From assembly GCA_045645205.1 (NCBI GenBank), contig JAZRIJ010000029.1, forward strand, positions 1-63,827: DNA of 63,827 bases, in the 5' to 3' direction. The stretch comes from Eubacteriales bacterium (GTDB taxonomy: Bacteria; Bacillota; Clostridia; Oscillospirales; CAG-272). Below are positions 50,581-63,137 of this stretch, one piece after another. The notes under the pieces were generated by a model. The model ran no database searches, had not been told where the DNA came from, and was given only the letters and a program-made list of their open reading frames with translations. How positions within the stretch are numbered: the stretch's first letter is position 1; each line of letters opens with the position of its first letter. The position numbers and the translations under genes are program-made.

Positions 50581-51419
50581 TTATACAGTGAATTTGTAAT
50601 CTTTTATAAGATTTGTTTCTACTCCGTCATTGCCTGAGGTGAGTACATACAGATTAAATGTATATTCTTTTCCTCTTATAAAACATATGTCTCCAAGATC
50701 AAGCTTTGTCAAGTCATATTCTCTCAAGTGATAATTTGTAGGTGTTCTCAAATTTGCCATAACTACATTGCCGGGACAATCGTATGTCTTTTCTCCGTCA
50801 TCTATAACAGCTCTTACTGAGATAATCTGTCTGTTTGATTTAACCCAACCAAAGAATACTACGTCTGCAAATCTAAAGCTGCTTACATATGTATCTTCTT
50901 CAACATATGCGCCTTCCTGGGTAAGTTCAGAAATTGAAATAGGAAGAGAACCTTCTGCTACAAGGTGATTAAAATTATATTGCACTTCGTGGAAAGAGGA
51001 TTTGTTTTCTTCTTTGATAAAACGGTTAGATGAACCGCCCGCCTGGTCAAGAATAGTGATATAGCTCTTTTCCATATCATATACTTGTTCACCGTTCTCA
51101 TCGATGGTAAATTCAACATGAGGCACATCGATTACAAGACGTACATGACGTCCGTTTCCGTCGGTTTTTCTGATATATGTAACAGCATCGCCGGGCTTAA
51201 GCTGTGAATATGCTTTAGCCATTACCTGCGGACCGTTAACTCTGGTCATTTCCTGTGTATTGTCATCATAAGTGTTTGAATAATCATATTCGCCAACGGC
51301 TACAACACCAGTATTCTTGCCGGGGTTAAAACAAATAAATGTCTCTTTGGGTGTCCATTCAATAGTCGCCATTTTTTCATATAGTCAACGACTTTTTGGC
51401 GAAGTGCTTGTTCGTTCAT
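50581..51419 (-). pseudogene. Hypothetical protein with a frameshift near its 5' end
   Basis: AAAGGAG RBS and ATG at 51419 (MNEQALRQKVVDYMK) are out of frame with the 263-aa ORF across an A6 run at 51372-51377. Confidence 0.55.
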
Positions 51420-51751
51420 CTTTTTTTATCTCCTTTAAAAAGATATTTTATACTCTAACTATTTTACTTTATTATATTGGGGTTTGTCAATGAAATCATA
51501 GATAACCTATCCTTTTTGGGCGTGTTTTGTTTCAAAATGCTCTATTAGGAAATGTTGCTTAAATTAAAAACAACAGCTTTTTAAAAATTATTAATAAACA
51601 TTATCCTCATTTTTATAATTGTACCATACCGTAAATGAGTTTGTCAACACTACTTTTTGATGAGTATGTTGTTTTTATGAAAAAATTTTGACTAAAAACA
51701 GCATATTTTTGACCTATACATAGCAAAAAGCGAAGTGAATTTCACTCCGCT

Positions 51752-52438
51752 TTATATATTTCCGTATGAGTTATTTGTAAGACTTGTTTTGCCGAAAAAG
51801 TTTTCATTTGGGAAATGCGTTTCTCGCCATTTCGGGTTATATTTATCTGTATACTTCGAAAAGCTCCACGCTTTTTCGCTTACAGAGCCTTTGCTCATAT
51901 GCATTCTTTGAGCAAAATTATAACTTGCATAGTATACAACAAAGAATGACAGCGTATCTGCAAACTGATTATAATCATCTAACAGATAAAGTTTGTGAGT
52001 GTATTTATAATCATTGACCGAAAGATAAGTTTCTATCAAAGCAATTTGCATAGTGCCTTGGTAAATTGAAACATAGTTAAATGAGCCACGCGACAAACAA
52101 TAGCAGTGAAAGATTTCTCCGTTATCCAAAGCAATAACATAAAAACTTTTAAGAAAACCGTGTTTTGAAAATACAATACTTCCGTACATGTTGTCGTTTT
52201 TATAAAGGTGGAAAACTCTTGTTAGGTTTGCTTCACCAAACAAATAACGCAACGGTATATAGTTAACCCATTTGGAAATATTGTAAACACCTTTAATTGT
52301 GTTTTCATTATTGGAAAGTTTTATAGATTGCAAACGGCTGATACTACCTGCATCACCGCTATAATAAAAATTATCGCCCTCAATATCGTAGGATTGTTTA
52401 ATGTTAGATGCAGTTTGGGAAATTTTAATAATCATCAA
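51752..52438 (-). CDS. Hypothetical cargo protein, beta-rich, possibly LURP/tubby-like
   Basis: 228-aa ORF with RBS, its own TTTACT-N17-TATAAT promoter and a terminator. Confidence 0.7.
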   Translation of the reverse strand: MMIIKISQTASNIKQSYDIEGDNFYYSGDAGSISRLQSIKLSNNENTIKGVYNISKWVNYIPLRYLFGEANLTRVFHLYKNDNMYGSIVFSKHGFLKSFYVIALDNGEIFHCYCLSRGSFNYVSIYQGTMQIALIETYLSVNDYKYTHKLYLLDDYNQFADTLSFFVVYYASYNFAQRMHMSKGSVSEKAWSFSKYTDKYNPKWRETHFPNENFFGKTSLTNNSYGNI

Positions 52439-52547
52439 ATCACCGCCTTTAAATTATTATAACACAACCACTCTAAAAAGTAAATCTCGGCAGTATAAAT
52501 CTCCTCAAAATACAGATAATAACAACACAATTTGAAAATTTTGTGAT

Positions 52548-52620
52548 GTAGGGCGGTGCCTTGGTGCCGCCGCCAAAACTCGTACAAAACGAAAACGGCG
52601 GGAGCAAGCCCCCGCCCTAC
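52548..52620. repeat. GTAG-type REP doublet (REPIN-like)
   Basis: GTAGGGCGG...CCGCCCTAC inverted ends, each half with its own hairpin; absent from the otherwise matching copy at 54719-54785. Confidence 0.7.
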
Positions 52621-52650
52621 GATATATTTGTAATAAGGAGAAGTGTATAT

Positions 52651-52725
52651 ATGAAAGCAACAGGAATTGTTCGTAGAATAGAGGGATGCGTTATAATAGG
52701 GCAAAAGTTGAGTAAGGCCTTATAA
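52651..52725 (+). pseudogene. Orphan spoVT 5' fragment (MKATGIVRRI) fused to 14 unrelated codons
   Basis: First 10 aa identical to SpoVT, with 3 synonymous codon differences; same promoter and RBS. Confidence 0.85.
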
Positions 52726-52833
52726 ACACCGGGTTTTTGGACGATTTGTAAAGAAAAAATTTTGACAAAAAAACAGCGTATTTTGACCTATACATATCAA
52801 AAGCGAGGGGATCCACCTCGCTTTTTAATGTTA

Positions 52834-54651
52834 TTATTCCTGTAGGTCGCGCTTAATGAGATTTTCAATATGCATCTTGAGTGAAGCATAAGCGGCAGGA
52901 TGATACTTCATTTTCATAACCTTGGAAATCTTATAGCACATAGAAGTGTATGACATACTTCCGTATATACGTATCTTTTTAATGTACTTTACATTACTTA
53001 ACATTCTTATTGCGTGCTGAGCAACTTTAACAATGGTTGTAAGTAAAATTATGCTCGCAAACATAATAGAAACAAGCGAAGAAATATTTTCAAACGAAAA
53101 AGTAATTGATTTAATGCTTATAAAGGCAACACAAAGAAGCAAAATGGATTCAGCAAAATCCTTGCTTTGCAGTATTCTTTGAAGAAAACTAATAATTCCA
53201 CCAAAAAAACTATGAAGCCTGTTTTTATAATATTTTATGACGATGGCCGCAAAATTTTTGTTTTCAAAAGCCTCGCTGGCCTTTCTGTATCGGTTTTTGA
53301 TTTCTTCAAGCGATTCATCAATCTCATTCTCAAAAAGAACATTGAAATGACATCGCCTGTTTGAAGGACTGCCCTGTGATAATTGAGGAAGATTGCCCGA
53401 TATTATCATTCCATGGCAAGACCACGATTCCTTTGTGGAAATCATATTAAGTTCACCATAAGCCTCGCGTGCAATTTCACCCAACAAATCGCTTCGCTTT
53501 TGATTAATATAGACGGTCGGTAGGTCTTCATAAACCGAGTTGTTATAGAATTGAACGTCCTCGTCATAAACCTCGGCATTTCCGTTGACACTTGGATAAA
53601 GAGCACCGCCGTCTATATTTTTAGCAGCGCGTAAGCCGAAAAGAATTTCTTTTTTGGAAGTTTTGATATTGCTGGAAACCCCAATTTGATTTACGTTGTA
53701 ACTGCACTTAATATATTCGTTGATATGGGTAAGGATTTGCTCGTCATCAACATCTTTTACAGAAAGTTCCTCAAACAAACGCATTTTGCAGCAGTCGTCA
53801 TAACTGAAAAATTTTTCAAGATTTTGGCGGCTCTCTTTAAGCAATGGATGACTTATATAATTATCGTCAAATGCGCAAACCGTTGCAAAAGTACTGCGCT
53901 CATATGTAAGCTGATAGTTGGATATTCCGTTGTTTTCAAAATTGTATTTCTGCTTATTAATTTCGAGTGGCTTTAACAAAACACCCGAATAAAACACCCT
54001 TCCAACCAGCAGTTTTATATTTGATTTATTCGCATAAATATCCGAAAAACCGATGCCCCGATCACTTATTTGCCAAACACCGTTCTTATTGACAAATTGG
54101 TATTCCTTTAACCGTTCAATCAAATCAAGGCATGGGCATCCGTGCAGAAGGAGGGTGCCTGCTGCACGATTATGGGAAATTACCGCAGAAAAATCGCTGT
54201 CAATGTCGGATAGGAAGTTTAGTTCAGCGCAATCCTTGAACTCCACTCCATATTTTGAAGCAAGAGTGAGCAAAATCAGTTTTGCAACGTCCAATAAGCA
54301 TTCTGCCTGGTCCTCGTGGAGCATAAATTCGGAACAGTGTTCGGAAATAAACGAATTAAGGCCTTTGGTGGATTTGAAGGAAAGAGCAGATATGGCGTCT
54401 ATTATAGAAAAACTGTCGATTCTCGGGGAAACACCGTAATAAAAATCAGAAAAATCCTCTTTGTAGCCAAAGGTTAAATCCTCGTTAAGAACAGCGTATC
54501 GCGAAAAAAATTGCTCGGGCTTATGGTTCAGTGTGAAGGATATTTTCTTATGTGAAAGAATAATCGCTTTGCAAAAATTAAGTGCCTGCTTTGAAACGTC
54601 TTCCTGCATGGTGTCGTTAAATTTTGAAATTGAAAAATCGTTAAGTTTCAT
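52834..54651 (-). CDS. Hypothetical cargo protein with a Nudix-like region and two C-terminal TM helices
   Basis: GVSSNIKT...FGLR...SVNGNAE...REAYGEL resembles a divergent Nudix fold; two hydrophobic helices follow. Confidence 0.65.
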   Translation of the reverse strand: MKLNDFSISKFNDTMQEDVSKQALNFCKAIILSHKKISFTLNHKPEQFFSRYAVLNEDLTFGYKEDFSDFYYGVSPRIDSFSIIDAISALSFKSTKGLNSFISEHCSEFMLHEDQAECLLDVAKLILLTLASKYGVEFKDCAELNFLSDIDSDFSAVISHNRAAGTLLLHGCPCLDLIERLKEYQFVNKNGVWQISDRGIGFSDIYANKSNIKLLVGRVFYSGVLLKPLEINKQKYNFENNGISNYQLTYERSTFATVCAFDDNYISHPLLKESRQNLEKFFSYDDCCKMRLFEELSVKDVDDEQILTHINEYIKCSYNVNQIGVSSNIKTSKKEILFGLRAAKNIDGGALYPSVNGNAEVYDEDVQFYNNSVYEDLPTVYINQKRSDLLGEIAREAYGELNMISTKESWSCHGMIISGNLPQLSQGSPSNRRCHFNVLFENEIDESLEEIKNRYRKASEAFENKNFAAIVIKYYKNRLHSFFGGIISFLQRILQSKDFAESILLLCVAFISIKSITFSFENISSLVSIMFASIILLTTIVKVAQHAIRMLSNVKYIKKIRIYGSMSYTSMCYKISKVMKMKYHPAAYASLKMHIENLIKRDLQE

Positions 54652-54721
54652 TTTTTGTACCTCGTTACAACAAGTATTGTTTTCATTATATCAAACTGTT
54701 ATCAAAAAGTAAATTCCCGCA

Positions 54722-54750
54722 GTATAAATCTCCTCAAAATACAGATAATA
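54722..54750 (+). promoter_or_regulatory. Forespore sigma-G/F-type promoter of spoVT (identical copy at 52493-52521)
   Basis: GTATA-N17-GATAATA versus the sigma-G consensus GHATA-N17/18-CATAHTA. Confidence 0.6.
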
Positions 54751-54785
54751 ACAACACAATTTGTAATTTAAGGAGAAATGTATAT

Positions 54786-55337
54786 ATGAAAGCAACAGGA
54801 ATAGTTAGAAGAATTGACGACCTCGGTCGTGTGGTAATTCCGAAAGAGATAAGAAGAACAATGAGAATTCGTGAGGGCGATCCGTTAGAGATTTATACAG
54901 ACAGAGAGGGCGAGGTTATCTTCAAGAAATATTCGCCTATTGGGGAGTTGACAAATTTTTCTGCACAGTATGCAGAAACATTGCATAAGGTTTGTGAGCT
55001 GTCTGTTGTAATAACCGACAGAGATACTGTTATTGCTGTATCTGGTCTGCCCAAAAAAGAATATATGGACAAGAGAATATCTTCCGAACTTGAAAATATT
55101 ATTGAAAATCGTTCAATATATATTTACACCCCCGGAGAGCAAAAAATACTTGCCACAAACGATGGCAGAGACAGCCACTTTGTAAGCTGCGCTATGCCTA
55201 TCATAACTGAGGGCGACATTATAGGTTGTGTTGTATCCATGTTACCCATGGAAGCTGACAAAAATGAAAAAAGCGAGGTAGAAACCAAGCTTGTTCAAAC
55301 TGCCGCAAACTTTTTGAGCAAACAGTTGGAAAATTAA
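54786..55337 (+). CDS. spoVT: Stage V sporulation protein T (AbrB domain plus GAF domain)
   Basis: MKATGIVRRIDDLGRVVIPKEIRRTMRIREGDPLEI, KKYSPIGEL. Confidence 0.96.
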   Translation: MKATGIVRRIDDLGRVVIPKEIRRTMRIREGDPLEIYTDREGEVIFKKYSPIGELTNFSAQYAETLHKVCELSVVITDRDTVIAVSGLPKKEYMDKRISSELENIIENRSIYIYTPGEQKILATNDGRDSHFVSCAMPIITEGDIIGCVVSMLPMEADKNEKSEVETKLVQTAANFLSKQLEN

Positions 55338-55382
55338 AAAATGGCTGTGTATAGGTTTTTTGTAACCCTTACACAGCTATTT

Positions 55383-56834
55383 TTATTTTCTTTTCCAAAA
55401 TACAGGGGTAAATACAAGCAAAATCGGATATATTTCCAATCTTCCGAGGAGCATTGCTATCGACAATACTATCTTGGAGAAGCTCGAATACGCCGCAAAA
55501 TTTGCAGTGGGACCTACATTTGCGAGTCCGGGACCAACATTGTTGAAACAGGCGGCTGCTGCCGTAAAATTTGTTTCAAAGTCAAATGCTTCGCCGGATT
55601 CCAAGGAAAGCAATAGTACAATTACAAAAAACAGAATAAAGAATACTGTAAAATAGACACTGACTCCGTTTATTGTTTGGTTGTCAATAGCTTTTCCTTC
55701 AAATTTTACACTTCCGACAGAGCGGGGATGGAGCATACGTTTTATATCTCTAAAAATGGTTTTCACGGCAATAATAATTCTTGATACTTTAATACCGCCG
55801 CTGGTAGAACCTGCGCATCCGCCGATAAACATAAGCAAAACAAGTATCATTTTTGAAAGAGTGGGCCACAGGTTAAAGTCAGTTGTTGCGTAACCCGTTG
55901 TAGTTATTATTGATGATACCTGAAAAAATGCACTTCTGACTGTTTCGGAAACACTGTCATACATATGGTGGATATTTGTTGATATAAGAACTGTTGCTGT
56001 TGCAATAATACCTATATATACCCAAAGCTCTGTACTTTTCAAGGCTGCGCGAAATCTTTTAATAAGTATAAGATAATACAGATTGAAGTTTATTCCGAAA
56101 ATTATCATAAATATTGCGATGACCCATTGCAAATATGCATTGTATCCTGCAATGCTGTCATTTTTTATACCAAATCCACCTGTCCCGGCAGTACCAAAAG
56201 CATGTAAAATACTGTCAAAAAGGGGCATACCGCCCAAGAGAAGCAATACTATTTCAACGAAAGTAATTACTATGTAAATGATGTATAGAAGTTTTGCGGT
56301 ATCACGTATCTTCGGTACAAGCTTTCCGACAATAGGTCCGGGCATTTCTGCTCTCATAATGTGAATAGATCTTCCCGACTCTTGAGGGAAAATTGCCATA
56401 ACAAATACCAGAACACCCATACCGCCGACCCAGTGTGTAAAACTTCGCCAAAAGAGCAATCCGCGGCTCATTTGTTCAATCTCATTTAAAATAGATGCAC
56501 CTGTTGTTGTAAAACCGCTTACGGTCTCAAAGAAAGCATCTATATATGAGGGTGTTTCTCTGCTTATGTAAAAGGGAAGAGCGCCTACAAGGGACAGGCA
56601 TATCCATGCCAATGCAACTATGGCAAAACCCTCTTTTGCAAAAATCATTTTGTCATTTTTGCCAAAAAGATTCGTAAGTATTATGCCGGCAGCCAGTGCA
56701 ATCAAAGCTGAAATAGCAAAAGATATTGCACATTTTTCGCGGTAGATAATGCTTGTTATCAGAGGAAGTACAAACAGTAAGGCTTCGATCTGAAGAATGC
56801 GTCCTACCATATATGAAACAATTTTGTGATTCAT
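55383..56834 (-). CDS. trkH: Trk potassium uptake membrane protein
   Basis: SGFTTTG, GTGGF, TTTGY, NNVGPG pore loops. Confidence 0.93.
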   Translation of the reverse strand: MNHKIVSYMVGRILQIEALLFVLPLITSIIYREKCAISFAISALIALAAGIILTNLFGKNDKMIFAKEGFAIVALAWICLSLVGALPFYISRETPSYIDAFFETVSGFTTTGASILNEIEQMSRGLLFWRSFTHWVGGMGVLVFVMAIFPQESGRSIHIMRAEMPGPIVGKLVPKIRDTAKLLYIIYIVITFVEIVLLLLGGMPLFDSILHAFGTAGTGGFGIKNDSIAGYNAYLQWVIAIFMIIFGINFNLYYLILIKRFRAALKSTELWVYIGIIATATVLISTNIHHMYDSVSETVRSAFFQVSSIITTTGYATTDFNLWPTLSKMILVLLMFIGGCAGSTSGGIKVSRIIIAVKTIFRDIKRMLHPRSVGSVKFEGKAIDNQTINGVSVYFTVFFILFFVIVLLLSLESGEAFDFETNFTAAAACFNNVGPGLANVGPTANFAAYSSFSKIVLSIAMLLGRLEIYPILLVFTPVFWKRK

Positions 56835-56849
56835 AAAAATTTACCCGAT

Positions 56850-58211
56850 TTATTTTTCAAGAATATCCGACAGGTCTTGCAGTCTGTGGTTTGCCGCAAT
56901 TACAACGACCTTGTCGCCGTTAAGGATCATATCATCACCGGCTGGAATTATTGTTTTTCTGTCTCGGATAATTCCACCGATAAGTATATTTTTACGTATT
57001 TTCATATCCTTAAGAGGAGTACCGATAACTTTTGAATCGTCTCTTACATTGAATTCCAAGGCTTCGGCTTTGTCATCCATAAGCTTGTACAGTAACTCAA
57101 CGCTGCTACCCATTGAATTTTGCAAAGCCCGAGCATAACTGATTATAAGATCGGAAACGATTTTTTTGGGAGAAACTATTGAGTCAAGACCCAGTTTTTC
57201 TGCCATGCCTGCAAGCTCATCGCGGTTAACTTTTGCTATAACCTTTGGAACATTTTGGGATAATGCAAAGATTGAAATGAGCATATTTTCTTCGTCCATA
57301 CCTGTTAGAGATACGAGCGCATCTGTATTTAAAAGGCCTTCTTCAACGAGTAACTCTTGTTGTGCACCGTCGCCGTGTATTACAGTAGTTTTAGGGAGTA
57401 GTTCGCATAGCATTTCGCATGTTTTTTCATCTTGTTCAATAATTTTCACCGATGTTCCAATATTAGTAAGCATTTCGGCGAGGTAGTAGGATACTCGTCC
57501 GCCGCCCAAGAGTATAACGTCTTTAGCTTGCTTTTGCATTTGCCCTGAGCCTTTAAAAAGTTTTTGCAATTCTGTGTGAGAGGCTGTTATGCCGATTTTA
57601 TCACCGCTGTTGAGGACAAAGTTACCATTTGGGATAAAAACATCTTCACCGCGTTGAATACAGCATACAAGAACTTTTGCATTAAATTTTGAGCGTATGT
57701 CGCTGAGTTTGACTCCGTCAAGAAAAGAATCTTCTTTGAGACGAATCTCAATTATTTCAAGATAACGGCGAGAAAAGGTTTCAATCTTGACTGCTGATGG
57801 AAATTTAAGTATATTAAAAAGTTCATGAGCGGCAAGTCTTTCGGGGTTAATAGCCATAGAAAGCTCGAGCTGCTGCCTCATGAAGCTTAGGCTTTTGTCG
57901 TTGTATTCGGGATTTCTAATACGCGCGATTGTGTATTTTGCACCCATTTTACGTGCGAGGAAACAGCTTAACATATTTAATTCGTCCGAGCCTGCAACGG
58001 CAACAAAAAGGTCTGTTTCCGATACGCCTGCTTCTTCAAGTATGTCGCTGTCAACACCGTTTCCGCATATGCCCATTACATCATATATGTTTGTAAGCTC
58101 GGAAATTACCGAAGTATTGTTATCAATGGCAACAATATCATGTCCTTCGGAAACAAGACTGGATATCAAAGTTGTTCCAATTTTGCCACAACCTGCAATA
58201 ATTATCTTCAT
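56850..58211 (-). CDS. trkA: Trk potassium uptake regulatory subunit
   Basis: Two RCK/Rossmann repeats (GCGKIG, GGGRV). Confidence 0.93.
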   Translation of the reverse strand: MKIIIAGCGKIGTTLISSLVSEGHDIVAIDNNTSVISELTNIYDVMGICGNGVDSDILEEAGVSETDLFVAVAGSDELNMLSCFLARKMGAKYTIARIRNPEYNDKSLSFMRQQLELSMAINPERLAAHELFNILKFPSAVKIETFSRRYLEIIEIRLKEDSFLDGVKLSDIRSKFNAKVLVCCIQRGEDVFIPNGNFVLNSGDKIGITASHTELQKLFKGSGQMQKQAKDVILLGGGRVSYYLAEMLTNIGTSVKIIEQDEKTCEMLCELLPKTTVIHGDGAQQELLVEEGLLNTDALVSLTGMDEENMLISIFALSQNVPKVIAKVNRDELAGMAEKLGLDSIVSPKKIVSDLIISYARALQNSMGSSVELLYKLMDDKAEALEFNVRDDSKVIGTPLKDMKIRKNILIGGIIRDRKTIIPAGDDMILNGDKVVVIAANHRLQDLSDILEK

Positions 58212-58419
58212 ATAAAATTCCTTTACAATTTGTTATTAAATAAAACGGTATAATAGTATTGACATAATGTATATATTAATATTGTAACATTTATTTTTAA
58301 AATTTGCAATAGAGTTAAGATTAAATATTAGCGTATATTATAAAACTTAAAGGTTTTTTGAGATCTTTGGGGTTATAAATTCAATTAATCTAAATTAATA
58401 ACTTTTTTATTATTTGCTA

Positions 58420-58448
58420 TTGCAAAAAAAATAATATTGTGATATAAT
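58420..58448 (+). promoter_or_regulatory. sigma-A promoter upstream of the tRNA-Ser half array
   Basis: TTGCAA-N17-TATAAT with an extended TG. Confidence 0.75.
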
Positions 58449-58467
58449 CCATTTGCTATAAAAATTT

Positions 58468-58509
58468 GGAGAGGTATCGAAGTGGTCATAACGGGGCTGA
58501 CTCGAAATC
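58468..58509 (+). repeat. Orphan tRNA-Ser 5' half, copy 1
   Basis: 41 of 42 nt identical to the 5' end of the intact tRNA (G instead of C at position 6); ends just past the anticodon loop. Confidence 0.92.
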
Positions 58510-58659
58510 TTCTTCGCCAAACGGAAGCCGAAACGCTGAAAACCCTTTAACCATGCGGGTTTCGGGCATTTCCTTGTTTCTGAAACACTATGAGTTCTAA
58601 CGAGAATTCTAATACAACTAAATATTGCGTTAATACTCCTTTGGGAGTTTAACATACAC

Positions 58660-58699
58660 GGAGACGTATCGAAGTGGTCATAACGGGGCTGACTCGAAA
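58660..58699 (+). repeat. Orphan tRNA-Ser 5' half, copy 2
   Basis: 40 of 40 nt identical to the intact tRNA through the anticodon loop (CTCGAAA). Confidence 0.92.
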
Positions 58700-58843
58700 C
58701 ATAGTCGGGTCTGTCACGCATTACTCTTTGAAACTCCGCTGTTCATCGGCGTTTACGCTGTGTGCATTTGCACTTTTGAAAACTCGCATCTCGCAGTTTT
58801 CTCGCAATTTGGTATCAAGGCGCAAGCCTATACAATTTTATAT

Positions 58844-58932
58844 GGAGACGTATCGAAGTGGTCATAACGGGGCTGACTCGAAATCAGTTAGGGAGCAATC
58901 CCCCGCGAGTTCGAATCTCGCCGTCTCCGCCA
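58844..58932 (+). tRNA. tRNA-Ser(CGA)
   Basis: 89 nt; GGAGACG/CGTCTCC acceptor stem, CT-CGA-AA loop, long variable arm, G discriminator, CCA. Confidence 0.95.
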
Positions 58933-58962
58933 AAGGCGGTACAAGTTATCTTGTACCGCCTT
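58933..58962 (+). terminator. Perfect 13-bp hairpin after tRNA-Ser
   Basis: AAGGCGGTACAAG-TTAT-CTTGTACCGCCTT. Confidence 0.7.
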
Positions 58963-59111
58963 AATCTTTGGTTATTCTCTGCGCTCTGTTGGTACTGATC
59001 CCTGGTACTTATGTTGAATTGGCGTCCCTCATTTTCGCATTTATGCAGACTATATTAGAGGTGAACAGTCAAATGAATACTGAGTTTCTGACGGTGGGAA
59101 AAGGCGTATCT

Positions 59112-59212
59112 GGAGTGACCCAACGAAAGCAGTTAGTATCATATCAGAGAACACCACAGAGCAAAGATGTAGCACTTACGCCGAGAAGGTTCGATACCTT
59201 CACACTCCACCA
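59112..59212 (+). ncRNA. Candidate tRNA-like RNA (acceptor stem, T-arm, CCA; non-canonical middle)
   Basis: GAAGG-TTCGATA-CCTTC-ACACTCC-A-CCA; GGAGTG at 59112 pairs with CACTCC; hairpin follows. Confidence 0.4.
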
Positions 59213-59213
59213 T

Positions 59214-59247
59214 AACTCCTTGAAGGTTTTATCCTTCAAGGAGTTTT
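59214..59247. terminator. Hairpin between the tRNA-like RNA and the integrase stop
   Basis: AACTCCTTGAAGG/CCTTCAAGGAGTT 13-bp stem. Confidence 0.7.
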
Positions 59248-59252
59248 CTCTT

Positions 59253-60440
59253 TTATCCCAAGGCACTTCCTATCGCCATTGCACTTGCTTTCTTACTCTC
59301 GCTATCAATGTGGCTGTAAATATTTGCCGTTGTTCCCATATCACTATGACCAAGCCAGTCCTGAATCATTTTCATCGGCACACCGTTTGCGAGAAGTAGC
59401 GATGCACAACTGTGTCGCAGATCGTGAAAGCGGACAGGTTTTAATCCTTTTTCTTTCAACACGACTTTGAAATGATCGGTCACGTAGTTGGGTTTTATAA
59501 TCTCACCGATTGCATCAACGCAGATGTAGTCGGTGTATTTTTTGCAGTAACCTCGGCGCATCACTCGCATCATTTCATCTTGCTTTTGTTTTTCAGCAAG
59601 GAGAACTTCTTCCACCTGAGGTATCAGAGGCAGTGTGCGGTAGGAGGATTTTGTTTTCATAACGTCCATTCCCACAACACCTTTTTCGTTTTGCACTATT
59701 TTGTGATTAACACTGACTGTCTTGTTTTCAAAGTCCACCGCCGACCATTTAAGACCAAGCACTTCACTTCTCCTGAGTCCGTAATAAGCTGCAAGGAATA
59801 TGACGATGTGGATGGGATCGTTCACCGTTTTATCGAGAAGTTCTTTCAACTCGGTGGCGTTATAATATTTACCGATGTACTGTTGCGCCTTCGGTCTGTC
59901 GGCTTGCTCAACGGGATTGCTCGGTATGATTCTACGCTTGACCGCCGACTTGAAAGCCAGATGCAATAGCGCGTGATGGCGTTGAGCAGTCGTGCCTTTG
60001 AGTCCGTCATTACGGATACGGATATAGTAATCGTTAATTTCATCACCAGTTATATCCTTCACCTTAAGGTCACCGCACTCACGGAAGAACGGAATCATTC
60101 TCGACTCAATCATCAGCTTGTAGCCTTCGTAGGTGGTTTCCGATACGTTTACCTTGTGTGACTCCAACCACTCGGGAAGGTAGTCAGCCACCTGCATATG
60201 CGCCACACGACTGCGCTCGCGATCAGCGTGGGACATATTCTCACGCTTGTATAAGTCGTCGGTGTTATAGTGATCAAGGAGTTGGCGGAGGCGGTGTTCC
60301 GCCTCACGCTTGTTACCTTTGTTTGCATCAAGATTCAAACCTTGCCATTTCTCTTTTCGCTTGCCGTCGGTATCATACAGATTGATGACCGCATACCACT
60401 TTTTGTTTTTCTCGGTCAGGTGTCCTGTGATTCGTTTCAT
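59253..60440 (-). CDS. int: Tyrosine recombinase/integrase
   Basis: R (GLRRSE), K (KTKSS), HDLRH, LGH and catalytic Y (NIYSH); N-terminal arm-binding-like region; start set at the ATG at 60440 after AAGGAG. Confidence 0.93.
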   Translation of the reverse strand: MKRITGHLTEKNKKWYAVINLYDTDGKRKEKWQGLNLDANKGNKREAEHRLRQLLDHYNTDDLYKRENMSHADRERSRVAHMQVADYLPEWLESHKVNVSETTYEGYKLMIESRMIPFFRECGDLKVKDITGDEINDYYIRIRNDGLKGTTAQRHHALLHLAFKSAVKRRIIPSNPVEQADRPKAQQYIGKYYNATELKELLDKTVNDPIHIVIFLAAYYGLRRSEVLGLKWSAVDFENKTVSVNHKIVQNEKGVVGMDVMKTKSSYRTLPLIPQVEEVLLAEKQKQDEMMRVMRRGYCKKYTDYICVDAIGEIIKPNYVTDHFKVVLKEKGLKPVRFHDLRHSCASLLLANGVPMKMIQDWLGHSDMGTTANIYSHIDSESKKASAMAIGSALG

Positions 60441-60444
60441 TTGC

Positions 60445-60759
60445 TCACGCTCCTTTCTTTTGAAGTTGTCCTTTGTCATCTCGGGCAACACCAACACTAT
60501 CACAACCATCTTCATAAGTCCAGAGATTATTCGGGACTGTCGGGGACGGAGTCTGATAGTTTCCTGCATTGGTCAGAAACTCAACCAAACAAACCTTCGG
60601 TACAATAATTTTCTTGCCCTGCTTGATGCTGCCAATCCTACCTTCTTTGATAAGACCATAGACGGTATTCTTCCCGAACTGCAACAGCCTTACCACATCC
60701 GGCACGGTCAACACATCGGGTTCATTCTTAAACATTTTGAAATAATATCTGTAACTCAT
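60445..60759 (-). CDS. Excisionase-like HTH protein
   Basis: PDVLTVPDVVRLLQFGKNTVYGLIKEGRI; directly upstream of int. Confidence 0.82.
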   Translation of the reverse strand: MSYRYYFKMFKNEPDVLTVPDVVRLLQFGKNTVYGLIKEGRIGSIKQGKKIIVPKVCLVEFLTNAGNYQTPSPTVPNNLWTYEDGCDSVGVARDDKGQLQKKGA

Positions 60760-61157
60760 GAAGGTTCTCCTTTCATTTTTTCGATATTTCGAGTATTAAA
60801 TGGGTGGTGGAATAATTTCCAAAGGTAGCACATTTGCGGCGCTAATCGCAAAAAGGTAGCACACCTGTAATTTAACTTGTGAATAGCCCACAAAGCCCCT
60901 AACGGTCGGCATTGCCGTCCGATGTGAGTCGGAAAGGTGGCGTTTTGCGGCACCTTTCCTTTCTCCTGCTTTCTTTTCATCCAAGTGTGTTACCACTACG
61001 GCAGAAAAGAAGGAAATAAGGCAGAGATTGCATTTCCACCAGCTTATTGCGCTTTATATTAGCTGCTTATATATTTTTTATTCTGTTGTAAGATTACTGG
61101 GTTTTGTTCTATGGGTCTTGTTATTGATAAGAAGTTTCGAACCTACCCAACTGAGAT

Positions 61158-61472
61158 TTATTCGCTATTGATTTTTGTTAGATCGACTACATGATAGAGG
61201 TTGGATGTTTTACTGCCATCGAACCGAGTTCGTGTTATCTTTCTAATCAATCCGATATCAATTAAATTGTTGAGAGCTATGTCTACCGTCTTTTTGTCAA
61301 TCTGACATTCTTCCGAAATCAATCGCCTTGACGGAAAGCAAGTATGGTTTGCAATATCAGCGTGTCGTAGCAGGCAACAGTACACTGTAAAATCTCGCGG
61401 CTTGAGTTGGAGTTCAAAAATTCTGTTTGCCACTACAAAGAAATCTCTCCTTGATGGTTGGGTATTTATCAT
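61158..61472 (-). CDS. Winged-helix (HTH_36-like) protein of replication-initiator type
   Basis: VYCCLLRHAD, CFPSRRLI, SNLY; ATG at 61472 after AAGGAG. Confidence 0.75.
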   Translation of the reverse strand: MINTQPSRRDFFVVANRIFELQLKPRDFTVYCCLLRHADIANHTCFPSRRLISEECQIDKKTVDIALNNLIDIGLIRKITRTRFDGSKTSNLYHVVDLTKINSE

Positions 61473-62030
61473 ATAAATTCTCCTTTGCAAAAAATTAAGA
61501 CCACTCACAATGAAACGATTAGTTCCTTGTAAGTGGTCTTTCTGTTAGTATTTAATTTTGGATATAGTACTCCCTTGGCATTGCATTAGAATCACATAAA
61601 AATTCTTTGTTCTTTCTCGTTGCGCATAAGGGTCATAAGGGAAGTGATGTTAATAAGGTCTGTGCTAAAATTAATTTGCTGTGTTAAACGAAGGATGTTT
61701 GGTTTCTCGCAACATCTATCTCTTGGATTGTACCGTGAGAACGAGAGAATCATATGTAACAAATAGGGCTTCAATTCCATCCCTGTCCGTCCACATCTCA
61801 TATGCCTATGAGCTGCCATGCAGAAGTATCATCATACCAATCGTGGGTCATCGCAAACCGAAAAAATGTTGTCGCTATTTCGGTTCGGCACATACGCTTA
61901 TCGCTCGCTCACTTGTTTGAGGTCATGGCGGCGTTGTCCATCTTTGCTTTCCTGTTAAGGTCACGACGGCTTTGTACCCGACATCCTTTTTTATTCAATT
62001 GTAAGCACCATTTTCCATTGGTACAACCTC

Positions 62031-62059
62031 ATTATAACAACCGAAAATCACCTTGTCAA
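62031..62059 (-). promoter_or_regulatory. Consensus sigma-A promoter pointing toward HTH-xis-int
   Basis: TTGACA-N17-TATAAT with an extended TG on the minus strand. Confidence 0.75.
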
Positions 62060-62303
62060 CACCCCGAAAACCGCATGGCATCAACGTTTTCAGCAAAAAA
62101 TCGTCCATTATTTCCATACAGTGTTTTTGTTAATTTTGCGTAGTTTTTAGTAATAAATATTCTACGAAAAAATTTTTCAAAAAATTTTTTGATCTACTAT
62201 AATTCTGGCGTTTTCGGGCGTTATTTTGCTCCTTGTTGCGATTAAAAAGAAAAAGCGAGTGTTTACTCGCCCGAGCAAACGCCCGCCTCAAATCGCCTTG
62301 TTT

Positions 62304-63137
62304 TTATCCACCGTAGTTTTCTTTGCTCATACAGATGCAGACATACCATTTATCGTTTGCTTTGATTACACCTACAGCAATGTATGGATACTTGGAGTTA
62401 CCGACATACGACCAGTGACCTTCGCTGTGATGAAAGCCATCTGCGATACGATCTGACATACTTTCTGCCGTGCCGAACCATTCTCCCATACCTATGGCTT
62501 CACGGCTGTAACCCTGATAGTAACTATCCTCGGCGGTCATACCATAGCGTGTCATATCTACGAACTCGCCGTATTTTAATTCTCTACACACATCACGAAT
62601 ATCTGTGTGGGAAAAGTTGGTCGTGAGCTCATTTGCTCTGTACCGTGCTACATCTGTCAATCCTGGGAGCATTGTTGCTGCCATGTCACCCTGCGCTATT
62701 CGATAGGCATTTATCTTTTCAATTACAAGCCTTTCGATGTCTGAAACATCAACCTCCGGCCACTCTATTCCCGCATATGTTTTTTCCGCTTTTGGAGTTT
62801 CTTCAACCTTTGGCTCGGTATTTTCCGCCGCCGACAGTTTTGCTATTTCAGTAGGCTTTGTTTCCTCTTTCGGCTTTGCCGTTGTTGAAGGCGCTGTGGC
62901 GGTCACAGTCGGTTTGGTTGCCTGATCCACGCTCTCGGTCGGGAGAGGCTCTTTTTCTTTCTCTGTCGGCTCTACCGCCGTTGTAGGCGGTATTGGTTCG
63001 GCAGGTGTTTCAGCTGTTATTATTTTCGATATCGTTGTCGGCGGACTTTCTGTAGGTGGCGGTGCAGAGTTGCCACCGCATCCCACCATACTTACGAGCA
63101 CCCCACAGCAGAGAAGAAGGATTATGATTTTTCTCAT
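62304..63137 (-). CDS. Lipoprotein with a Pro/Thr-rich linker and CAP (SCP)-like domain
   Basis: MVGC lipobox; INAYR, NFSH, SEGHW, IAVG. Confidence 0.72.
   Translation of the reverse strand: MRKIIILLLCCGVLVSMVGCGGNSAPPPTESPPTTISKIITAETPAEPIPPTTAVEPTEKEKEPLPTESVDQATKPTVTATAPSTTAKPKEETKPTEIAKLSAAENTEPKVEETPKAEKTYAGIEWPEVDVSDIERLVIEKINAYRIAQGDMAATMLPGLTDVARYRANELTTNFSHTDIRDVCRELKYGEFVDMTRYGMTAEDSYYQGYSREAIGMGEWFGTAESMSDRIADGFHHSEGHWSYVGNSKYPYIAVGVIKANDKWYVCICMSKENYGG

Follow-up and report, generated by a model that had tools for sequence, protein, structure and literature searches.

In the attP site of phage lambda, the IHF site H' lies between the core and the arm-type sites P'1-P'3, and the bending of DNA by IHF (binding consensus WATCAANNNNTTR) at H' lets one integrase bridge core and arm, with the Xis sites about 60-100 nt before the core, on the P arm. 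In streptococci, integrase-less CIME elements accrete beside ICEs. Further accounts describe tRNA-dependent lysogeny in Fionnbharth and other mycobacteriophages (Guerrero-Bustamante and Hatfull 2024, PMC10865867), tycheposons and tandem islands at tRNA genes (Hackl et al., preprint 10.1101/2020.12.28.424599), and dusA-specific integrase islands, whose target is a protein-gene 5' end (Farrugia et al. 2015, PMC4482086).

Here, a locus of an Oscillospirales genome was compared with these systems. The window, i.e. the whole 63,827-nt stretch of DNA that was analyzed, holds four copies of a motif. As judged from sequence comparisons, this motif is conserved in the attachment-site arms that a large family of lambda-like tyrosine-integrase elements carries in gut Clostridia of the order Oscillospirales.

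Attachment-site arms at tRNA-Ser and spoVT

The tRNA-Ser stack of the window lies on the plus strand, where the chromosomal promoter TTGCAA-17-TATAAT (58420-58448) precedes a first orphaned tRNA 5' half (58468-58509; acceptor strand GGAGAGG), ending in the anticodon loop CTCGAAATC. Spacer 1 (58510-58659), the post-core arm of an older element, comprises a motif copy, the direct repeats GTTCTAAC and ATTCTAAT (58594 and 58606) and a promoter that serves the tRNA copy behind it. Four other genomes of the family have this spacer at 82-85% conservation (G005, which belongs to the same genus, and G013, G020 and G024, which belong to other genera), and G034, from another family, has it at 68%; the flank upstream is not conserved in the compared genomes. 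A second orphaned 5' half (58660-58699, acceptor strand GGAGACG) leads into spacer 2 (58700-58843). This spacer is the arm that follows the core in the integrase element E2; it contains the motif, TCTCGCA repeats (58789, 58800) and, at 58809-58836, the promoter TTGGTA-16-TACAAT. Next comes the complete tRNA-Ser(CGA) of E2 (58844-58932, acceptor GGAGACG/CGTCTCC). A terminator (58933-58962) is found at a 281-nt insert (58934-59214, plus strand), which is absent from most E2-like elements and whose end resembles a tRNA 3' end. The integrase gene of E2 (59253-60569, minus strand, 438 aa) is positioned tail to tail with the tRNA, and an HTH_17 excisionase-like gene occupies 60445-60759 (minus strand). 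Phage_integrase (E 3.6e-25) and SAM-like (E 6e-12) domains were identified in the integrase, which thus has the tyrosine recombinase catalytic domain, while Arm-DNA-bind_4 stayed below its 22.3-bit cut-off in the integrases of the window and of G066 (16.9 and 18.6 bits; E 0.005 and 0.001, respectively). E2 has int and xis and no phage structural genes within the reach of the window, and its far arm falls beyond the window end.

At 64 of the 79 loci with relatives of the window's integrase, a tRNA-Ser adjoins int, and in 25 of the 79 the E2 tRNA-Ser(CGA) is 100% identical over 89 nt. Furthermore, of 12 arrays examined, 9 have a related integrase (35-67% identity) immediately behind the tRNA. 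Spacer 2 and the full tRNA-Ser(CGA) travel together with int; the initial annotation had taken the tRNA spacers for cassettes of a second array, a view that was abandoned since spacer 2, full tRNA and integrase are one element. Past the core, the arms have approximately 30 variable nt, then the motif (+31 to +56) and two element-specific repeats (about +80 to +105), and beyond the arm a promoter, the element's own complete tRNA-Ser and int. These repeats recur in the far arm, in two or three copies. In the complete element of G066, the spacer contains two copies of TTCTTGC, the region beside int two of GCAAGAA, and the far arm two of each, while in the complete element of G098 TTCTCTCC is found twice in the spacer, as an inverted pair beside int and three times in the far arm. 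With the same word at all three places, i.e. on both attP arms and distinct from the core, the direct repeats appear to behave as arm-type sites, as had been proposed.

The leftmost 5' half in G066 and G098 matches a 3' half 17.6 and 16.9 kb downstream, respectively, and not the intervening tRNA. The inner and the split host tRNA differ in the acceptor strand in both genomes and in G098 also in the anticodon stem. The host tRNA is rebuilt at neither junction: its 5' half runs into a non-tRNA arm, while at the other end a bare 3' half adjoins the far arm. At eight loci the far arm of another element was joined to the 3' half beside int, a case of nested insertion. The elements evidently insert into the anticodon loop of tRNA-Ser(CGA), each with its own complete tRNA-Ser; each new element by all indications enters the tRNA delivered by its predecessor, so that 5' halves stack about 190 bp apart, and these halves are evidently stubs left by nested insertion.

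At spoVT, an orphaned promoter, RBS and first 32 nt (52475-52682, plus strand; ATG at 52651) are split by the insertion of a 93-nt repeat (52541-52633). The 32 nt are a duplicate, and similarity to intact spoVT stops at 52682, marking the crossover region. The post-junction arm of spoVT cassette B (52683-52833, plus strand), 72-83% conserved in other genomes, contains a TATAAT-containing near-palindrome (+6 to +20), a motif copy, TTTTGAC repeats (52760 and 52781) and a strong terminator (52799-52825). The cargo ORF (52834-54651, minus strand, 605 aa) had no match in Pfam or PADLOC, and is followed by the spoVT promoter and intact spoVT (54704-55337, plus strand; spoVT at 54786-55337), the promoter and first 32 nt of which would have been supplied by cassette B.

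Across genomes, spoVT cassettes form arrays of up to four, with cargo that includes metabolic and Abi genes. An integron, i.e. IntI with attI and attC hairpins, was rejected as a description of these arrays, as each cassette ends with a spoVT promoter and 5' end copy instead of attC, and a recombinase was missing from the cassettes: tblastn with the two integrases gave no homologue in 27 spoVT sequences, and Pfam assigned none of the 12 ORFs at the G037 spoVT locus (10 from the array and 2 upstream of it) to a recombinase family. The single architecture proposed for spoVT cassettes and tRNA spacers holds for the arm layout, but not for the units themselves, as the former have no integrase and the latter are not cassettes.

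A motif at a fixed distance from the crossover point

Four copies of a 6-N11-6 palindrome had been reported in the window, the first three 31-33 nt past the end of target homology and with short direct repeats beyond. A direct sequence check bore this out. Site 1, AAGGCC-N11-GGGTTT (52714-52736), starts 32 nt past the end of spoVT homology at 52682, site 2, AAACCC-N11-GGGTTT (58540-58562), 31 nt past 58509, and site 3, AACTCC-N11-GCGTTT (58732-58754), 33 nt past 58699. Site 4, AAACCG-N11-CGTTTT (62068-62090), does lie beside a promoter in the integrase element, but is internal to E2 and not at a junction. In this region (62031-62090, minus strand) the motif adjoins the -35 of a 12/12 promoter, TTGACA-17-TATAAT (minus strand, 62059 to 62031), that reads toward the xis-int genes, and GGTTGT occurs twice, 14 nt apart, across the -10 and the start. 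The promoter is invariant, and the motif pattern is kept in 10 of 10 aligned E2-like elements.

By an unsupervised motif search in 39 non-redundant post-break tRNA-Ser arms, nearly all from outside this genome, we found one 26-nt motif, located at nt 31-33 past the anticodon-loop break in 30 arms, at 41-42 in seven and elsewhere in two. The consensus is AAAACCC-TGTATTTATGC-GGGTTTYS (about 26 bp), with invariant columns C6 and T23 and conserved loop columns T8, T12, T13, A15 and T16. In spoVT arms the motif is inverted (minus strand) at 28-30 nt, with 12-26 bits, in 13 of 20 non-redundant cases; six have none and one further arm reaches only 7 bits (four with an internal deletion). In 9 of 12 far arms, the best plus-strand match begins 86-89 nt ahead of the core (eight of these with at least 10 bits), and three are without a plus-strand motif. 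The same layout, with the motif inverted, appears in a tRNA-Pro(TGG) array on contig C73. While the approximately 30 nt ahead of the motif and the repeats beyond differ among arm families, the motif persists. Its proposed placing, with the crossover point on one side, the direct repeats specific to each element on the other and a constant spacing, is thus seen in the sequences of both tRNA-Ser and spoVT arms.

A matrix was derived from 29 arms of other genomes, with no window arm used. Since homologues of spacers 1 and 2 were present in this training set, sites 2 (58539-58564, plus strand, 26.9 bits) and 3 (58731-58756, plus strand, 23.7 bits) are not independent, whereas sites 1 and 4 are. 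Site 1 (52712-52737) scored 22.6 bits on the minus strand vs. 9.2 bits on the plus strand, and is therefore inverted relative to the tRNA arms; site 4 (62065-62090, minus strand) scored 15.4 bits. At 15 bits or more, the window had exactly four places, namely the four sites above, and the 1.75-Mb genome had 62 positions (53 places with overlaps merged) vs. 3-13 across five shuffles. At 20 bits or more there were 13 positions, and none in each of the five shuffles.

These scans bear on the extremely improbable explanation that a loose 6-N11-6 pattern was spotted by chance, after the fact. As first written, the pattern does sit at the background of the window (36 matches with up to three mismatches, 29.8 expected), and a degenerate pattern from the four sites gave 10 matches at 7 places in the window vs. 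3.6 expected. Chance is nonetheless refuted by the same motif emerging at the same distance from independent arms of other genomes and by the genome excess of 13 vs. 0; the recovery of sites 1 and 4 by a matrix that had seen neither also speaks against it. Background frequency, named at the outset as grounds for refutation, is thus true of the loose pattern, while the refined motif is enriched and fixed near junctions.

Candidate roles of the motif

The palindrome itself did not prove to be the conserved feature. Paired cells were complementary in 151 of 210 cases, vs. 148.5 +/- 3.2 in column shuffles, conservation extends to the loop, and spoVT arms have the motif in inverted orientation; with no covariation beyond the shuffles, what is conserved is sequence and not pairing. 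This also weakens an unlikely reading as insulator, in which a weak bidirectional terminator would keep transcripts from the orphaned tRNA and spoVT promoters out and element transcripts in, and shield the xis-int promoter at site 4. The shape (A-tract, GC stem, loop, stem, T-tract) speaks for it, and an orphaned promoter lies upstream of all junction copies. The matrix also catches ordinary bidirectional terminators, e.g. AAAACCCGAGATTTTCTCGGGTTTTC on contig C67, and a genuine tRNA-Arg terminator on C82 has the motif as its core, so that the motif is terminator-like in shape and may descend from a terminator. On average, folding is more stable in motif windows than in their shuffles (mean z -1.19, 7 of 39 below -2), with a mean energy of -7.1 kcal/mol vs. 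-2.3 in control windows. However, the loop is 11 nt long and conserved in sequence, the T-run is just 3-4 nt and within the stem, and the common variant AAAGCC...GGGTTT has a G.G mismatch in the stem. None of the four sites passed a terminator rule (stem of at least 5 pairs, loop of 3-8, T-run after) or was among the 15 terminator-like calls in 52400-62400. Moreover, a strong terminator is already present 70 nt on in the spoVT arms and ahead of the motif on C73 and C25, and termination needs no fixed distance from the core.

A terminator that followed the tRNA 3' part in an ancestral attP could also have been inherited as a relic without present function. A hairpin of this form does lie between tRNA end and arm repeats where the arrangement is an ordinary one, in C82 and in G066 beside int, and the arms are probably all homologous, so that conservation partly reflects common descent. 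Still, we find a relic very unlikely, as motif and distance are kept in several families of the order and at three targets while the 30-nt flank and the repeats have diverged beyond recognition.

A motif common to elements with differing repeats fits a shared factor, and the reading we prefer, at about even chances, is an accessory-factor site where a DNA-shaping helper protein would be seated. The N-terminal arm domain of the integrase would bind the direct repeats, and a sequence-specific helper common to all elements, either host-encoded or conserved in the elements, would bind the motif and bend the DNA so that a single integrase bridges core and arm. At site 4, the same factor may act beside the promoter of the xis-int operon. 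Given the inverted motif in spoVT and tRNA-Pro arms, such a factor would have to be indifferent to orientation, which counts against it, as do the arms that lack the motif, its terminator-like shape and the probable common descent of the arms. Exactly one HU-type gene was matched in 17 of 21 genomes of relatives, which makes a sequence-specific IHF pair unlikely, and none was found in the present, 85%-complete genome; HU is not known to read sequence. As to a match with the IHF consensus, TTGAT(T/A) is, as judged by eye, present in many copies of the motif.

The bound protein might instead be encoded by the elements, e.g. the HTH_17 excisionase or a small regulator, with a role in directionality at the arms and in xis-int repression at site 4. 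E2 has an HTH_17 gene, site 4 adjoins the operon -35 with its pattern kept in all ten E2-like elements, and by analogy the far-arm copy sits where the lambda P arm has Xis sites. Such a protein is nevertheless quite improbable, as the motif occurs on both arms, is common to elements with integrases of only 35-67% identity and different arm repeats, and is also found in the spoVT cassettes, which encode neither an integrase nor a protein of this kind.

The helper-site reading has a wider and more doubtful form, in which a single host protein with sequence specificity would use the motif as its landing pad, and the whole Oscillospirales superfamily would depend on this protein, including integrase-less units such as the spoVT cassettes that would be moved in trans. 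Arm, motif and target stub would together form a complete attachment site of less than 200 bp, by which integrase-less units could be moved by integrases encoded elsewhere. If true, lambda-type arms would here underlie a gene-cassette system that resembles an integron and is located at a sporulation regulator's 5' end.

Comparison with described systems

As in lambda attP, core, helper-type site and tandem arm-type repeats follow in that order within about 110 bp, helper-type sites (here the motif copies, as candidates) occur on both arms, and the tyrosine recombinase appears to have an extra N-terminal part. Unlike in lambda, the motif is a near-palindrome that looks dissimilar to the consensus of IHF, a single HU-type gene is seen in relatives, and distances are about 15-20 bp longer.

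The unrestored host tRNA and the full tRNA-Ser(CGA) carried by the element are as in tRNA-dependent integration, and in the Fionnbharth account putative arm-type sites likewise flank a short core (PMC10865867). The hosts here are instead Oscillospirales, and the target is tRNA-Ser(CGA). The window's element has int and xis, with no phage structural genes in the window. Another difference is the position of the element tRNA: it is immediately next to attP, at about 150 bp from the core, and so becomes the next target, with 5' halves accumulating.

The spoVT cassettes resemble dusA islands in having their target at a protein-gene 5' end. The islands carry an integrase, whereas none was found in the 27 spoVT sequences searched, with arrays of up to four cassettes.

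Lastly, serial integration at one site that displaces older elements, partial tRNAs that mark old events, and units that are cargo-only or have lost their integrase are shared with tycheposons, tandem islands and CIMEs. The literature consulted describes no common motif at a fixed distance. The stubs that accumulate here differ in being tRNA 5' halves; they lie upstream of the tRNA, and a complete arm and a promoter go with each.

The spoVT and tRNA-Ser arrays

The contig analyzed here, which is entire and belongs to a 1.75-Mb assembly that is 85% complete, harbors two repeat structures with 4 kb between them. In the first, an intact spoVT gene (54786-55337, plus strand) is accompanied by a duplicate of its promoter, ribosome binding site and first 32 nt (52475-52682), and the 2.1-kb unit separating the two holds a single ORF of 605 aa on the minus strand. 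Neither this nor the other cassette ORFs of the window (228 and 263 aa) matched any Pfam or PADLOC family. The second structure comprises a complete tRNA-Ser(CGA) gene (58844-58932) and two tRNA-Ser 5' halves (58468-58509 and 58660-58699), both of which stop exactly at the anticodon loop and are followed by spacers of 150 and 144 nt, respectively. Downstream of the complete tRNA are a tyrosine integrase gene (59253-60569, minus strand), close kin of which occur in metagenome bins of Acutalibacteraceae and further Oscillospirales, together with genes for an HTH_17 excisionase-like protein and an HTH_36 protein. Known RNA families above threshold in the window were limited to two tRNAs and a glycine riboswitch, and no credible family match was obtained for 58200-59300.

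Smaller insertions were observed in both structures. The duplicated spoVT promoter contains one of 93 nt (52541-52633), which looks like a small repeat of the MITE or REP type. A 28-nt GC-rich word within it is found again on contigs C4, C58, C83 and C11, where two inverted copies are spaced by about 150 bp, on C78, where the copies are single, and in many relatives. Another insert, of 281 nt (58934-59214), separates the CCA end of the tRNA-Ser gene from the integrase terminator, and it ends in a sequence resembling a tRNA 3' end (T-arm, acceptor strand and CCA). It is absent from most integrase elements of this type, and at other loci the same joint is occupied by inserts ranging from 169 bp to 1.9 kb. 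Contigs with and without it coexist in two sequencing runs (X2 and X19), which is all that these contigs confirm.

Motif position and nested insertion in tRNA-Ser arrays

A palindrome had been described in the initial annotation at four sites (52714-52736, 58540-58562, 58732-58754 and 62068-62090), with short direct repeats behind the first three. All four, and the direct repeats, were recovered at these positions, the first three sites lying 31-33 nt from a break. As written, the palindrome is not special within the window (36 matches with up to three mismatches versus 29.8 expected), and a degenerate pattern derived from the four sites gave 10 matches at 7 places versus 3.6 expected; a test therefore needed data from outside the window.

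The tRNA 5'-half word was present in 219 out of 401 genomes of the order, approximately 46 of which (by hand count) had two to four copies. Cultured carriers include Oscillibacter valericigenes Sjm18-20, with an array of four or more copies (locus L106), Caproiciproducens galactitolivorans and Caproicibacter fermentans. Copies in the fetched arrays were spaced by 179-225 bp in 28 cases and by 78 bp in two, and one further interval, its bases only partly read, was 342 bp. The block consisting of the first 5' half, the first spacer and the second 5' half is shared at 82-85% identity with four further members of the family (one from the window's genus and three from other genera) and at 68% identity with a genome from a different family. 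Upstream of this block, the DNA showed no conservation.

From all loci, 68 post-break arms, i.e. the DNA following a fragment end, were reduced to 40 non-redundant arms, and to 39 after exclusion of a 38-nt spacer. When a single 26-nt motif was sought in each arm without supervision, it was placed at nt 31-33 in 30 of the 39 arms, at 41-42 in seven and elsewhere in two; such counts overstate independence because the arms share ancestry. Nearly all relatives are metagenome bins. Judged by eye, the A-tract/CC half of the seven shifted arms remains near nt 32-37. The consensus reads AAAACCC-TGTATTTATGC-GGGTTTYS. The 30 nt preceding it vary freely among arms, and downstream lies a pair of direct repeats, each 7-11 bp long and set at a period of 12-14 bp, followed by a promoter and then the next tRNA copy. 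As had been suggested from the window, the repeats are element-specific, with words that change between arm families (TTCTAAC, TTCTTGC, TCTCGCA, GTTCTCTCC, ATCCCTC, GTCTCCCC, TTCTACGC and others) and the motif preceding them. The arms at many loci also contain a second short A/T-rich word (AATTTAATA or ACTAAATAT), located upstream or downstream of the direct repeats, e.g. at 58619-58627.

In one related genome (G066), the leftmost 5' half, with the acceptor GGAGGGT, matches a 3' half (ACCCTCC) 17.6 kb downstream, and the full tRNA in between carries GGAGAGG/CCTCTCC. In another (G098), both the acceptor and the anticodon stem of the leftmost half are complemented by a 3' half located 16.9 kb downstream, the inner tRNA being different in both stems. 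Since the outer halves pair with each other and the inner tRNA differs, one element entered the anticodon loop with its own tRNA-Ser, and the spacer is the post-core arm of an integrase element. The spacer repeat word is found again beside the integrase gene in both genomes, and the far arm, i.e. the opposite end of the element, contains it two or three times; there the motif starts 86-89 nt ahead of the core. The best plus-strand match starts 86-89 nt before the core in nine of 12 non-redundant far arms, eight of the nine scoring at least 10 bits. The notion of the ~190-bp units as deletion remnants or self-standing mini-elements was dropped, because the split host halves in these two genomes are the outer ends of one element.

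Integrases 35-67% identical to that of the window directly follow the tRNA in nine out of 12 arrays examined, and in none of three single-copy loci, whose flanks are short. A scar model, in which excision via the element's own tRNA leaves one unit behind, could account for the three arrays without an integrase. The sequencing runs searched, all of them contigs, contained at most 24% of the sampled words in any run. Joints skipping the first or the second spacer were seen in one contig each, with a short side of 28-30 nt across repeated 5' halves, and were discounted as evidence of excision.

tRNA-Ser adjoins the integrase gene in 64 of the 79 loci related to the window's integrase, and in 25 of the 79 the full tRNA is 100% identical over its 89 nt. 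As most of these 25 loci also have a homolog of the second spacer (58700-58843) and then a 5' half, this spacer, the tRNA and the integrase gene make up one element, hereafter E2, the far end of which is beyond the window. In eight loci, a bare 3' half comes after the integrase gene and is fused to the far arm of another element (repeats, motif, about 60 nt and core), which shows that the tRNA carried by the element was itself a target of insertion. Such nesting explains the regular stacks of tRNA 5' halves. The first 5' half in the window (GGAGAGG) misfits the present 3' strand (CGTCTCC), so the working tRNA was imported. Among viral contigs, the tRNA word was found at 13 loci, two of which had both a 5' half and a spacer. 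Elsewhere in the window's own genome, at C61:2750-3010, a far arm (two copies of TTTTCTAGC, motif and 62 nt) is joined to a tRNA-Ser(CGA) 3' half with an acceptor strand that fits neither 5' half in the window. Within E2, the repeat word of the second spacer (TTTCTCGCAA) occurs once more at 61701-61710, about 350 nt from the motif site at 62068-62090.

spoVT cassettes and other motif sites in the genome

Arrays of spoVT 5' stubs are common among relatives. One genome (G037) has four cassettes ahead of the intact gene, with cargo consisting of a HAD hydrolase, Fe-ADH and a DeoR regulator; a GH30 enzyme and a DUF4190 protein; AbiD and a 228-aa ORF; and AraC, EamA and an oxidoreductase. A post-break module of about 125 nt is 72-83% conserved in the spoVT arms. 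The matrix built from tRNA arms, which contained no spoVT DNA, gave a minus-strand match of 12-26 bits at nt 28-30 in 13 out of 20 non-redundant spoVT arms (12 out of 19 without the window's own arm). Among the other seven, four have an internal deletion, one is a longer spoVT fragment, one reaches only 7 bits and one is degenerate. The architecture that the cassettes had been proposed to share with the tRNA spacers is thus borne out for the motif and its distance, but the motif is inverted and the integrase is missing: no integrase homolog was found in 27 sequences searched (26 spoVT loci and contig C85). Unlike the tRNA elements, the spoVT units supply only a promoter and 5' end, and a second 3' part of spoVT was not found. 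These units would have to rely on an integrase encoded elsewhere. A 20-nt word from a spoVT arm hit a single, unrelated phage locus among viral contigs.

Integrase-less spoVT arrays of up to four cassettes were seen at loci L145 (G037:C22), L146, L147, L149 and L150, and in the window at 50581-54785; each cassette has at its end a new duplicate of the spoVT promoter with the first 32 nt of the gene, and the cargo comprises metabolic, regulatory and AbiD genes. The two cassettes of the window share a 50-nt left-end block with 90% identity and TTTTGAC repeats (51679-51728 and 52753-52802), and one of them, cassette A, has lost its junction and motif. A further spoVT 5' stub with an arm (repeats ATTTTCG) is located on another contig of the window's genome (C85:4180-4330).

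A third target with the same layout is the tRNA-Pro(TGG) gene on contig C73 of the same genome (C73:32580-33030; L160 2083-2530), with two 5' halves upstream, 191 and 181 nt apart, each followed by an inverted motif and then by ATTTTGACC repeats resembling those of the spoVT cassettes. Past the tRNA-Pro, these repeats recur, and behind them are an incomplete 3' fragment and a Fic/HTH_17 gene. Motif copies with near-identical flanks also occur after strong terminators behind tRNA-Ser(TGA) (C73:31041-31066) and behind a tRNA 3' fragment at a contig start (C25:114-139), probably representing another element family that uses tRNA 3' ends.

The genome was scanned, as had been proposed, with a matrix from 29 arms, none of them from the window; homologs of the sites at 58540-58562 and 58732-58754 were included, and none of the other two. 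This gave 62 positions of at least 15 bits versus 3-13 in five shuffles, and 13 of at least 20 bits versus none. Merging left 53 places, of which four fall in the window and coincide with the sites of the initial annotation. The remaining top places are found at contig ends, beside tRNA genes, or beside the integrase genes of C82 and C74, and several top-scoring places are ordinary terminators. The site at 62068-62090 does adjoin a promoter, as first described, but it lies 3.1 kb within E2, away from any junction. All ten aligned E2-like elements keep the motif pattern there on the minus strand, directly abutting an invariant TTGACA-17-TATAAT promoter that reads towards the excisionase-like and integrase genes. 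A binding site for the excisionase or a regulator is a rather improbable account of the motif.

Nature of the motif and comparison with known systems

Another alternative reading of the motif is an insulator hairpin. Folding is slightly more favorable for motif windows than for shuffles (mean z -1.19, with 7 of 39 below -2), and on C82 the motif forms the core of a real tRNA-Arg terminator, which makes a terminator origin plausible. The seven symmetric pairs are, however, complementary in 151 of 210 cells versus 148.5 +/- 3.2 in shuffled columns, a level reached by 525 of 2000 column shuffles, so that pairing is a by-product of two conserved half-sites. Covariation being absent, the RNA-hairpin reading was rejected. 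We regard an insulating function as unlikely. The loop sequence is conserved, none of the four sites qualifies under the terminator rule, and on C73 and C25 a strong terminator already precedes the motif. For these reasons we favor a sequence-specific helper site for a candidate binder, a reading we hold with about even confidence; that the motif is a mere relic seems quite unlikely. In relatives, a single HU-type gene is present and nothing points to an IHF pair, and a search for HU and IHF genes in the window's own 85% complete assembly found none.

The elements concerned are a very common, unstudied mobile group of gut Clostridia. Their attachment sites have a precise anatomy of core, putative helper motif at a fixed distance and specificity repeats, the same layout as in lambda attP. 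The motif matrix can be used as a marker of element ends, and if the binder is a host protein, it would be a common dependency of many elements. Nested insertion also accounts for the tRNA 5'-half stacks at this locus, where many metagenome assemblies are interrupted by them. The spoVT arrays point to putative trans-mobilized cargo units, which integrase-based island finders would miss. Among the papers listed, none dealt with spoVT as an integration site, and no listed title on tRNA-dependent lysogeny concerned Clostridia.

The targeting of the 5' end of a protein gene by the spoVT cassettes is reminiscent of dusA islands (PMC4482086), and the serial integration is reminiscent of tycheposons (10.1101/2020.12.28.424599). 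tRNA-dependent integration was described in 2024 for mycobacteriophages (PMC10865867), in a paper stating that the phenomenon may exist beyond actinobacteriophages; it is here extended to Oscillospirales. In the mycobacteriophages, according to the same paper, the tRNA is likewise not rebuilt and a replacement tRNA is provided. The elements described here differ in that the tRNA adjoins attP, and therefore becomes the next target.
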